64,000 bases of DNA from a virus. Lineage: Duplodnaviria > Heunggongvirae > Uroviricota > Caudoviricetes. The translations under genes were made by a program, and so were the position numbers. Location: the IMG/VR virus record IMGVR_UViG_3300013901_000006, positions 15,774 through 79,773 of that record; one strand, written 5' to 3'. Shown one piece after another: positions 56,346-57,625 of this stretch. Within the stretch, counting starts at the first letter, position 1. The number at the start of each line of letters is the position of its first letter. Under the pieces are notes generated by a model that worked only from the letters and a program-made list of their open reading frames with translations, did not search any database and was not told the DNA's origin.

Positions 56346-56719
56346 ATGAGTAATTATGTAAACCTACTGGATATTGTGTATCCAGTAGGTTCAATCTATC
56401 ACAGCATGAATTCAACTTCACCTGCTACAAGCATTGGTGGCACATGGACAGCAATTAAAACTTTTCTGTTAGGTTCTACCACTTCTGGTAAGACTGGCGG
56501 AGAAGAAGTACATACGCTTACCATTAATGAAATGCCTGCGCATTCTCACGCGCAATATGTTACAGCAAACAGTGGCAATGAATCAGTTAGAAGCGACTAT
56601 TCTCGTGACCAACATGGTCTTATTTATCCACAGGGATGCGATACTGGTACCACGGGGGGCAAGCACACAACAATATGCCGCCCTACACGACTTGCTTCAT
56701 TTGGTACAGAACAGCTTAG
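56346..56719 (+). CDS. Gp10_C-like tip module M5, frameshifted at G6 (56654-56659)
   Basis: G7 gives GQAHNNMPPYTTCFIWYRTA* (stop 56717-56719). As assembled, the frame runs on to 57170. Confidence 0.8.
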
Positions 56720-56755
56720 TCGTACTGAAAGCAAACCTTCTAAGCGAGGTGGCGT

Positions 56756-57148
56756 ATGTCTAACTACGTTAACCTCTTGGACATCGTTTACCCAGTGGGT
56801 GCAGTTTATATCTCAAACAATTCAACAACACCAGCAAACATTATCGGAGGTACTTGGACAAAAGTTGCATCGGATACATTCATCTGCTCTGGGACACCAA
56901 ATGCAACGGGTGGAACAAATACTCAAAAGCTCTCCGTTAGCAATTTGCCATCGAACGTTTGGCTTACGGGTGGAACTTGCAAAAACTTTGGTTTACCGAC
57001 AGCACTATCTACATTGTTTAGTTCAGTTACCACATTTGGTATTGAAGCATCTCGTATTACAGATGACAAAACTCAACAATATAGTTATGAACCTTTCGAT
57101 AACCGTCCGCAATATAGAGCTTTTAACATCTATTACCGCACAGCCTAG
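56756..57148 (+). CDS. Gp10_C-like tip module M6
   Basis: Conserved ends ...YYRTA*. Confidence 0.75.
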   Translation: MSNYVNLLDIVYPVGAVYISNNSTTPANIIGGTWTKVASDTFICSGTPNATGGTNTQKLSVSNLPSNVWLTGGTCKNFGLPTALSTLFSSVTTFGIEASRITDDKTQQYSYEPFDNRPQYRAFNIYYRTA

Positions 57149-57169
57149 TCTTCTAGGAGGTGTTGCATA

Positions 57170-57625
57170 ATGGCGAATTATGTTAACCTCCTAGACATAG
57201 TTTATCCTGTTGGGTCTGTGTATATCACATTCAATTCTGTTAATCCCTCTGATTCAGTTGGTGGAACGTGGGAAAAAATTGAAGATAAGTTTCTGCAATC
57301 TTCTGGTACTAAAAATACATTAAATTCTATTGGCGGATCTTCCGTTGAAAAGCAATTGCATTTATGCTATGCAGCGTATTGGAGGGCATTGGTCACACTA
57401 GACAACGCATCAGGAGATTTAAGCATAATTGGTTTTGATAGTAATAGTGCAGAAGGTATGGAGAGCACAATGACATACTCGTCTTCCCCATGGAACCATG
57501 ATGCAAATGCCTGTTTGCAAAATGGTCAAACAAATAAGTCGAACCCAATTCTAGTTCATAGATACGTCACATGGGACAATAGACCATCTTATATAACTTG
57601 TAATATGTATAAACGTACAGCGTAA
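57170..57625 (+). CDS. Gp10_C-like tip module M7
   Basis: Conserved ends ...YKRTA*. Confidence 0.75.
   Translation: MANYVNLLDIVYPVGSVYITFNSVNPSDSVGGTWEKIEDKFLQSSGTKNTLNSIGGSSVEKQLHLCYAAYWRALVTLDNASGDLSIIGFDSNSAEGMESTMTYSSSPWNHDANACLQNGQTNKSNPILVHRYVTWDNRPSYITCNMYKRTA

Follow-up and report, generated by a model that had tools for sequence, protein, structure and literature searches.

The stretch of DNA analyzed here (the window, 64,000 nucleotides in full) comprises bases 15774–79773 of a 145,027-bp linear viral contig from IMG/VR (estimated 94% complete; 36.8% G+C), the genome of an uncultured human-gut phage. Its tail-fiber genes are followed by seven tandem small genes, M1–M7, each of which encodes a stand-alone Gp10_C domain (Pfam PF21939). 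The subject of this report is the end of this array, where a tract of G residues inside M5 sets the reading frame and a frame without stop codons leads from the tract across the whole of M6 to the start of M7. The PF21939 scores of the three genes are 58.2 bits for M5, 41.7 for M6, and 39.7 for M7, all above the Pfam gathering cut-off of 27 bits. The features, in window coordinates, are the following.

56346–56653, plus strand: body of M5, from its ATG to the tract; PF21939 with E 2e-15 over residues 7–89 of the assembled open reading frame (ORF).
56654–56659, plus strand: poly-G tract, G6 as assembled, encoding the Gly-Gly of a conserved GG(Q/A)AHNN motif; candidate frame selector.
56660–56719, plus strand: tail of M5 in the ON frame (G7/G10), QAHNNMPPYTTCFIWYRTA, with the stop TAG at 56717–56719, 36 nucleotides before the ATG of M6.
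56661–57170, plus strand: conduit, a stop-free frame of 169 codons, +1 relative to M6, from the tract to the TAA at 57168–57170.
56756–56763, plus strand: start of M6 with the overlapping stop of the second frame, ATGTCTAA (ATG at 56756, TAA at 56761–56763), invariant in 14 of 14 aligned relatives.
56756–57148, plus strand: M6, 130 amino acids, PF21939; ends conserved, central cassette hypervariable.
57152–57195, plus strand: predicted hairpin that takes in the M7 Shine-Dalgarno sequence, the TAATG, and the opening codons of M7, formed by pairing of CUAGGAGGUG with UAACCUCCUAG.
57170–57625, plus strand: M7, 151 amino acids, PF21939; its ATG overlaps the stop of the conduit (TAATG).

Three outcomes follow from the length of the tract. 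With G7 (or G4 or G10), M5 is completed and ends in ...GGQAHNNMPPYTTCFIWYRTA; G7 and G10 are regarded as the intact state because the resulting C-terminus is common to the paralogues. With G5 or G8, the frame terminates at the TAA that lies across the M6 start codon. With G6, the assembled length, it stays open for 169 codons past the tract, through all of M6 in the +1 frame, and stops on the TAA that overlaps the M7 ATG at 57170. M5 is thus intact with G7 or G10 and frameshifted with G5, G6, or G8. An earlier, sequence-only reading of this DNA had placed three stop sites, one for each class of tract length, and all of its coordinates hold when the sequence is read again. The positions of the three stops relative to the starts of M6 and M7 are conserved in relatives.

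The M5 tract is a truly length-variable site, and all three frame classes are found in nature. L066 and L067, two relatives found in other samples, match the window at 98.4 and 98.8% identity over the array and carry G5 and G10, respectively, so that these two genomes and the window (G6) are each in a different frame. All seven indels (7/7) that distinguish the three genomes inside the array fall in G tracts, namely those inside M3 and M5 and those in the leaders that precede M2 and M3. More distant relatives have G7–G11 at the same site. In the full set of retrieved assemblies in which an M5-type tract precedes an M6-type start, M5 is intact in about 21, the frame stops at the M6 start in about 12, and it reads through M6 in five (the window, L069, L071, L075, and L079). 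Different states are also found with an identical M6 protein (G9 in L069 and L075 versus G8 in L074; G9 in L071 versus G7 in L078). As a homopolymer in a coding region, with a length that differs between near-identical genomes and toggles the frame, the tract qualifies on sequence grounds as a contingency locus.

The open frame across M6 stands out from its surroundings. Stop density in the +1 frame of the window genes is 4.75%, and the longest other stop-free +1 runs extend over 102–124 codons. When the codon order of M6 was shuffled, the +1 frame was open in 1.5% of cases, and when its synonymous codons were resampled, in 0.2–0.8%. Synonymous resampling across the M6 family predicts 3.6–6.3 stops per M6 gene, with a probability of finding none that ranges from <0.0002 (0/5000) to 0.014. 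Permutation of the synonymous codons inside M6 left 9.5% of sequences open, a control that retains the depleted codon set of M6 itself.

The family sample consisted of 24 distinct M6-family genes from other metagenomes, which form 19 clusters at 95% nucleotide identity and share 44–80% amino acid identity with the M6 of the window. Fifteen of the 19 clusters are free of +1 stops; a single stop occurs in two clusters, three stops in another, and five in the last. None of the 99 distinct paralogous tip modules at the same loci is open in this frame (2–12 stops each), and the +2 frame of M6 itself contains 10–16 stops. Six central cassettes of M6, mostly unrelated in nucleotide sequence (57–67% identity when aligned globally), all lack stops, with a probability of 0.014–0.12 for each.

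The codon usage of M6 suggests how the stops are avoided. Leu, Ile, and Val codons that end in TA or TG create a +1 stop in certain contexts (TA before a codon starting with A or G, TG before a codon starting with A); such combinations number 0/130 in M6 as against 487/1476 (33%) in the paralogues. Before codons starting with C or T, NTA and NTG codons are used in the same M6 genes at 29/116 (25%). Likewise, the conserved Val-Asn of the N-terminal motif is written GTT AAC in M6, whereas elsewhere it is GTA AAT, which gives TAA in the +1 frame. The sequence-only reading had claimed that the long overlapping frame is not accidental, and had named stops in the orthologues, or open frames commonly arising on shuffling, as what would speak against it; the orthologues are mostly free of stops, shuffled and resampled sequences are rarely open, and no paralogue is, all of which bears the claim out. 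The conduit is very probably under selection.

The two ends of the conduit are also well defined. In five relatives, its frame is closed by a stop 2–13 nucleotides upstream of the tract, which means that it can be entered only through a frameshift at the tract. Its far end is the TAATG of the next start, or a remnant of it, in nearly all relatives. The start codon met there belongs to an M7 remnant, or to an M7 head fused to the downstream gene, in L018/L073 and L059. The exception is L010/L077, in which M7 is deleted and the open run extends 182 nucleotides into the region of the next gene.

Deletions of M7 are seen in L018 (3408–3457), L053 (2914–2963), and L059 (2937–2984), with the start site and about 12 first codons remaining. 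The ATG of M7 is changed to ATA (TAATAT) in L018 and L053, while in L059 the M7 head is joined in frame to the downstream gene, giving a product of 225 amino acids.

At the M7 start, the predicted hairpin has a stability of -24.2 kcal/mol (z -3.45), and none of 200 shuffles was as stable. In 14 relatives, 95.7% of cells are paired, compared with 34–54% in slid controls; covariation does not exceed that of shuffles, variation being too low. The Val-Asn-Leu-Leu-Asp of M7 is encoded by GTT AAC CTC CTA GAC, which complements AGGAGGT, and M1 uses GTA AAT CTC TTA GAT for the same residues. Since the start of M7 lies in a strong, conserved predicted hairpin, it plausibly needs an incoming ribosome. 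At the M6 start, an alignment fold that pairs the 'PPY' codons of the M5 tail with the M6 ribosome-binding site was not relied on, as it shows zero compensatory changes.

From these observations, the following mechanism can be proposed. The M5 tract would be a hypermutable poly-G tract of the contingency type, whose length shifts by slipped-strand mispairing and sets the frame in which ribosomes exit M5. In the first frame (G7 or G10 in the phage of the window), M5 would be completed, with its stop 18–42 nucleotides before the M6 start. In the second, ribosomes would stop on the sequence that spans the M6 start, a layout typical of termination-reinitiation coupling. In the third (G6 as assembled), ribosomes initiated on M5 would traverse M6 in a frame other than its own and terminate at the UAAUG that overlaps the start of the following cistron. 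This is usually M7, and its ribosome-binding site would be locked in the predicted hairpin at the conduit exit. The likely effect is that the cistron after M6 would stay translated, or become the best-coupled one, when M5 is out of frame, and that M6 would be bypassed.

That a poly-G contingency locus is combined here with a selected ribosome conduit, coupling translation to the gene after M6, is in our judgment probable, and delivery of ribosomes to the next start site is the likely role of the conduit. We infer the coupling itself, the bypass of M6, and any change in the tip of the virion. More tentatively, the tract may act as a full, heritable ternary router, which would assign M5-loaded ribosomes to M5, M6, or M7 so that a different tip predominates in each state. 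On that reading, the third position would work through the conduit over M6, some 130 codons selected only for the lack of stops in a frame whose peptide does not matter, and the gain or loss of a single base would alter the host-recognition tip, out of three, that predominates on a phage particle; we regard this as possible though doubtful.

Several observations weigh against the proposed mechanism. Read-through is the rarest state among the assemblies, and short-read assemblies carry some error in homopolymer length, yet the difference between G5 and G10 exceeds such error. The 3' arm of the M7 hairpin is coding sequence for a conserved motif, and covariation lends it nothing beyond shuffles. 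The predicted fold at the M6 start is no better than shuffles (z -0.46), with two competing models. Four of the 19 M6 lineages contain +1 stops. Two of these, L056–58 and L070, keep the architecture (the tract and the following module) and have one stop each, from which it follows that the conduit is not obligatory. Other tip families behind the same M5 tract and start site (L021–L034, L068) have 2–8 +1 stops, so that the open frame belongs to the M6 family and not to the tract.

It was considered whether L056 halts both off-frames at the M6 start; this was rejected because its third frame enters M6 and stops at codon 58–59, which makes it a true exception. The other two lineages with stops differ in their surroundings. 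L053 has lost the upstream tract and has only an M7 remnant after M6, and of its five +1 stops, two lie in the body of the gene. L047 has a short G9 leader of its own, and its swapped, M5-like 5' end contains all three of its +1 stops, for which reason it was rejected as a decayed control.

The main rival explanation, which we consider unlikely, is a binary on/off switch of M5 with a fail-safe. M6 and M7 would be made at similar levels in all states, and the off-frames would only prevent the loss of ribosomes, thereby avoiding polarity, decay of naked mRNA, or re-initiation in M6 that yields truncated, possibly poisonous tip subunits; the conduit would be selected, with no three-way choice. 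Several further points that count against routing also speak for this rival. The ribosome-binding site of M7 is strong (AGGAGGTG) and only 5 nucleotides separate the stop of M6 from the M7 hairpin, which may make the conduit dispensable for M7; translation of M6 may also open the hairpin, in which case M7 could be made in two or all three states. The relatives whose conduit ends on an M7 remnant or enters another gene (L018/L073, L059, and L010/L077) suggest 'protect whatever comes next', and they are as compatible with a rule of sustained translation of the following cistron as with a choice of M7. Finally, both off-frames of M3, whose tract is G8 at 55769–55776, simply stop on the start of M4 (TAATGGCTAA). 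This same arrangement provides the argument against the fail-safe: a stop for the third frame at the M6 start, like the one that TAATGGCTAA provides at M4, could be had with two point mutations nearby, which seems far cheaper than about 130 open codons. The larger cost is paid across diverged cassettes, which suggests that skipping the M6 start matters.

A second alternative, which we find distinctly improbable, is that the tract works as a constitutive distributor, in which slippage of RNA polymerase or the ribosome along the G run would send, in every genome, a fixed share of ribosomes into each frame. Long homopolymers are slippery sites for RNA polymerase. Such a mechanism would explain why the conduit is selected even though the read-through state is the rarest in DNA, and variation in the DNA is compatible with it. 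However, tract lengths differ directly at the DNA level between near-identical genomes, and the G6 of the window is short for efficient transcriptional slippage.

Slightly less probable still is dual coding, namely that the read-through product of 274 amino acids, made of the N-terminal part of M5 and a polypeptide from the +1 frame of M6, is a useful protein. The 274-amino-acid ORF does exist in the window, the four other read-through assemblies share its frame state, and the extension is predicted to be helical, with a predicted local distance difference test (pLDDT) score of 70–90 over parts. A synonymous third-position change in M6 always alters the second codon position of the +1 frame, so fewer synonymous changes would be expected in M6 if the +1 protein had a function. 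No such reduction relative to M7 was found: the fraction of codons that differ at identical residues is 0.345 among M6 pairs and 0.284 for M7 (first 50 codons, all pairs). The +1 peptides are only 33–46% identical among relatives and wholly different between cassettes. AlphaFold2, run on 12 aligned extensions, gave two generic long helices with a predicted template modeling (pTM) score of 0.25 and a mean pLDDT of 63.5, and a Pfam search of the 274-amino-acid ORF returned zero domains past residue 89. The fusion also lacks the C-terminal part of Gp10_C, from the tract onward, and reading of the sequence near M6 revealed no Shine-Dalgarno sequence with a start codon belonging to the +1 frame. 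As there is neither synonymous constraint nor a confident fold or domain, the only property under selection would seem to be freedom from stops, a pattern suggestive of ribosome transit; the selected feature seems to be an open ribosome track and not the peptide it encodes.

Chance is very improbable and already largely refuted: an open frame that stems from the amino acid and base composition of M6 and from shared ancestry would fit the 9.5% left open by permutation, the smaller number of risk codons in M6 (shuffle means of 2.3–4.5 stops versus 5–13 in paralogues), and the fact that orthologues are not independent samples, but not the closed frames of all 99 paralogues, the open frames of largely unrelated cassettes, the context dependence of M6 codon use (0/130 versus 29/116), the many stops in the +2 frame, or the return of stops where the architecture is lost.

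The design seen at M5 has counterparts elsewhere in the array. The four upstream members, all Gp10_C tip genes (PF21939), are located as follows.

54294–54680: M1.
54803–55243: M2.
From 55382: M3.
55855–56301: M4.

Short leader ORFs before M1, M2, and M3 (leader regions 54178–54296, 54724–54810, and 55287–55389) contain G9 tracts at 54207, 54755, and 55320, respectively. In each leader, one length class stops over the start of the following gene, which is TAATG for M1, ATGAGTAA for M2, and TTGGCTAA, with a TTG start, for M3. Predicted hairpins cover the ribosome-binding sites of the leader-preceded genes; at M1, AACCTCC, located seven bases upstream, pairs with the Shine-Dalgarno sequence GGAGGTT. 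The leader tracts of L066 are G10 before M2 and G11 before M3. M3 itself is frameshifted in the present assembly (region 55769–55862), and G9 would restore its ending ...WRRTA; L066 has G9 and L067 has G7 at this site. L060, L061, and L062 have an identical M6 protein and an M3-like gene of 170, 180, and 183 amino acids, respectively.

In L046 (2383–2508) and L059 (2386–2508), M6 is preceded by a chimera in which an M1-type leader (VNKFNELTSLGGG...) is joined at the G tract to the tail of M5. It looks as if two G tracts had recombined and M1–M5 had been deleted. The tract of L059 has decayed to the locked allele GGGAGTGGG. The possibility that the leader of L046 is in the conduit frame was rejected, since translation shows that it ends on the M6 start.

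A search for M6 homologues found 164. In the M6 alignment A1, the central cassette (columns ~57–125) occurs in at least four unrelated versions between the invariant N-terminal 56 residues and an invariant DNRPKYRAFNIYFRTA tail. This layout of conserved ends around an exchangeable center is the pattern expected for a receptor-binding tip exchanged via recombination.

The tip array as a block is shifted relative to three relatives. In L042, L047, and L055, it comes right after a Phage_fiber_2 gene of 509 amino acids and is followed by genes of 174, 273, 143, and 548 amino acids. Comparison with positions 40398–54090 of the window places the homologues of these four genes at 43904–47395, upstream of the array, which here stands after a second set of fiber genes (49723–54090) whose products end in CK(L/I)WIK(I/V). 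Downstream of the array, a conserved gene of about 207 amino acids (MFPSFF...) carries a poly-T run (~T8–T10) right after its ATG in L008 (~6905–6960), L009 (~6900–6950), and L010 (~6405–6440). The ATG is in frame with the body of the gene in L008 and out of frame in L009 and L010. This run may be a second type of homopolymer switch, or an assembly error.

The window also contains an endolysin gene (60171–61217), and no tRNA genes were found in it. Related contigs come from human-gut metagenomes, including Hadza samples. The structural proteins are only weakly similar to proteins of Firmicute phages, one of them to proteins of phages of Bacillus, Lactococcus, Enterococcus, and Clostridioides, and, judging by this weak similarity alone, the host is probably a gut Firmicute. 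A blastn search with the tip array against the GenBank phage collection gave zero matches, and a scan of genome contigs with the M6 alignment gave zero prophage relatives through which the host could be identified.

Elements of the proposed system are known from other contexts. Classical coupling by stop/start overlaps (UAAUG, AUGA) with a masked downstream ribosome-binding site operates in the trp operon of Escherichia coli and between the coat and replicase genes of RNA phages. The resemblance lies in the stops that overlap the next start (ATGTCTAA, TAATG) and in the predicted hairpin over the Shine-Dalgarno sequence and AUG of M7; in the classical cases, however, the upstream frame is fixed, whereas here a mutable tract would pick among three frames and hence three coupling points. 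The tetranucleotide loci of the lic1 type in Haemophilus influenzae reportedly produce three levels of expression by the use of alternative start codons. They share with M5 the principle that repeat length modulo 3 yields three states instead of two, but their three levels concern a single gene, while the M5 tract determines three termination sites over three successive genes. The invertible G/C segments of phages Mu and P1 and the diversity-generating retroelements of Bordetella phage BPP-1 produce stochastic variation of host-recognition proteins. They are functional analogues that work through recombinase inversion or mutagenic retro-homing, and not through homopolymer slippage with translational routing.

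The pil1 locus of Streptococcus gallolyticus undergoes leader-peptide phase variation, through a GCAGA repeat and attenuation at a transcription terminator (Danne et al., 2014; PMC3894217). As described there, the repeat in this Firmicute determines the distance that ribosomes cover along an upstream ORF, and their position controls the downstream genes through an RNA hairpin. In the same account, the pil1 repeat lies in a short leader and acts on a terminator, whereas the M5 tract lies in a structural gene, with a predicted hairpin at an initiation site and a 169-codon passage across another gene.

In coliphages T2 and T4, contingency loci made of simple repeats undergo reversible frameshifts that produce bet-hedging heterogeneity (Gomez, Barrick and Waters, 2025; bioRxiv 10.1101/2025.10.21.683753). 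According to the abstract of that study, they resemble M5 in having repeats within phage genes, frameshifts, and a heterogeneous population; unlike the M5–M7 arrangement, neither coupling to a downstream cistron nor a conserved alternative frame is named in that abstract.

The Fletchervirus phages of Campylobacter are reported to have hypermutable poly-G tracts in genes for receptor-binding proteins (Sorensen et al., 2021, Cell Rep 35:109214; reference 58 in PMC12823448). These tracts, like that of M5, are G homopolymers inside a host-recognition gene of a phage, and shifts in their length reportedly change the frame and create subpopulations with different tail proteins. The Fletchervirus system is reportedly an ON/OFF switch of the gene that bears the tract. 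The present case differs in that both off-frames end at conserved starts of downstream genes, one of them after a selected stop-free crossing of a gene, and in that the host is probably a gut Firmicute and not Campylobacter. When the literature was searched for coupling that a repeat controls over the length of a gene, the nearest matches were the work of Danne et al. (2014) and that on the Campylobacter phages; the search returned zero reports of a repeat tract selecting one of three coupling points, and zero of a conserved transit frame that stays free of stops over an entire gene.

For annotation, the 274-amino-acid 'gene' is to be taken as a frameshift allele plus conduit and not as a protein family. 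If the proposed reading is true, it would reveal a new constraint on coding sequences, in which synonymous codons are chosen to keep a second frame free of stops for the transit of ribosomes and not for a second protein, and scans for overlapping genes would misread such transit frames as dual coding. It would also extend phase variation beyond the switching of single genes to the routing of translation between several cistrons. Uncultured gut phages that carry several alternative tail tips in an array would gain a concrete means for a heritable and random choice of tip, which would bear on their host range and on the dynamics between phages and bacteria.

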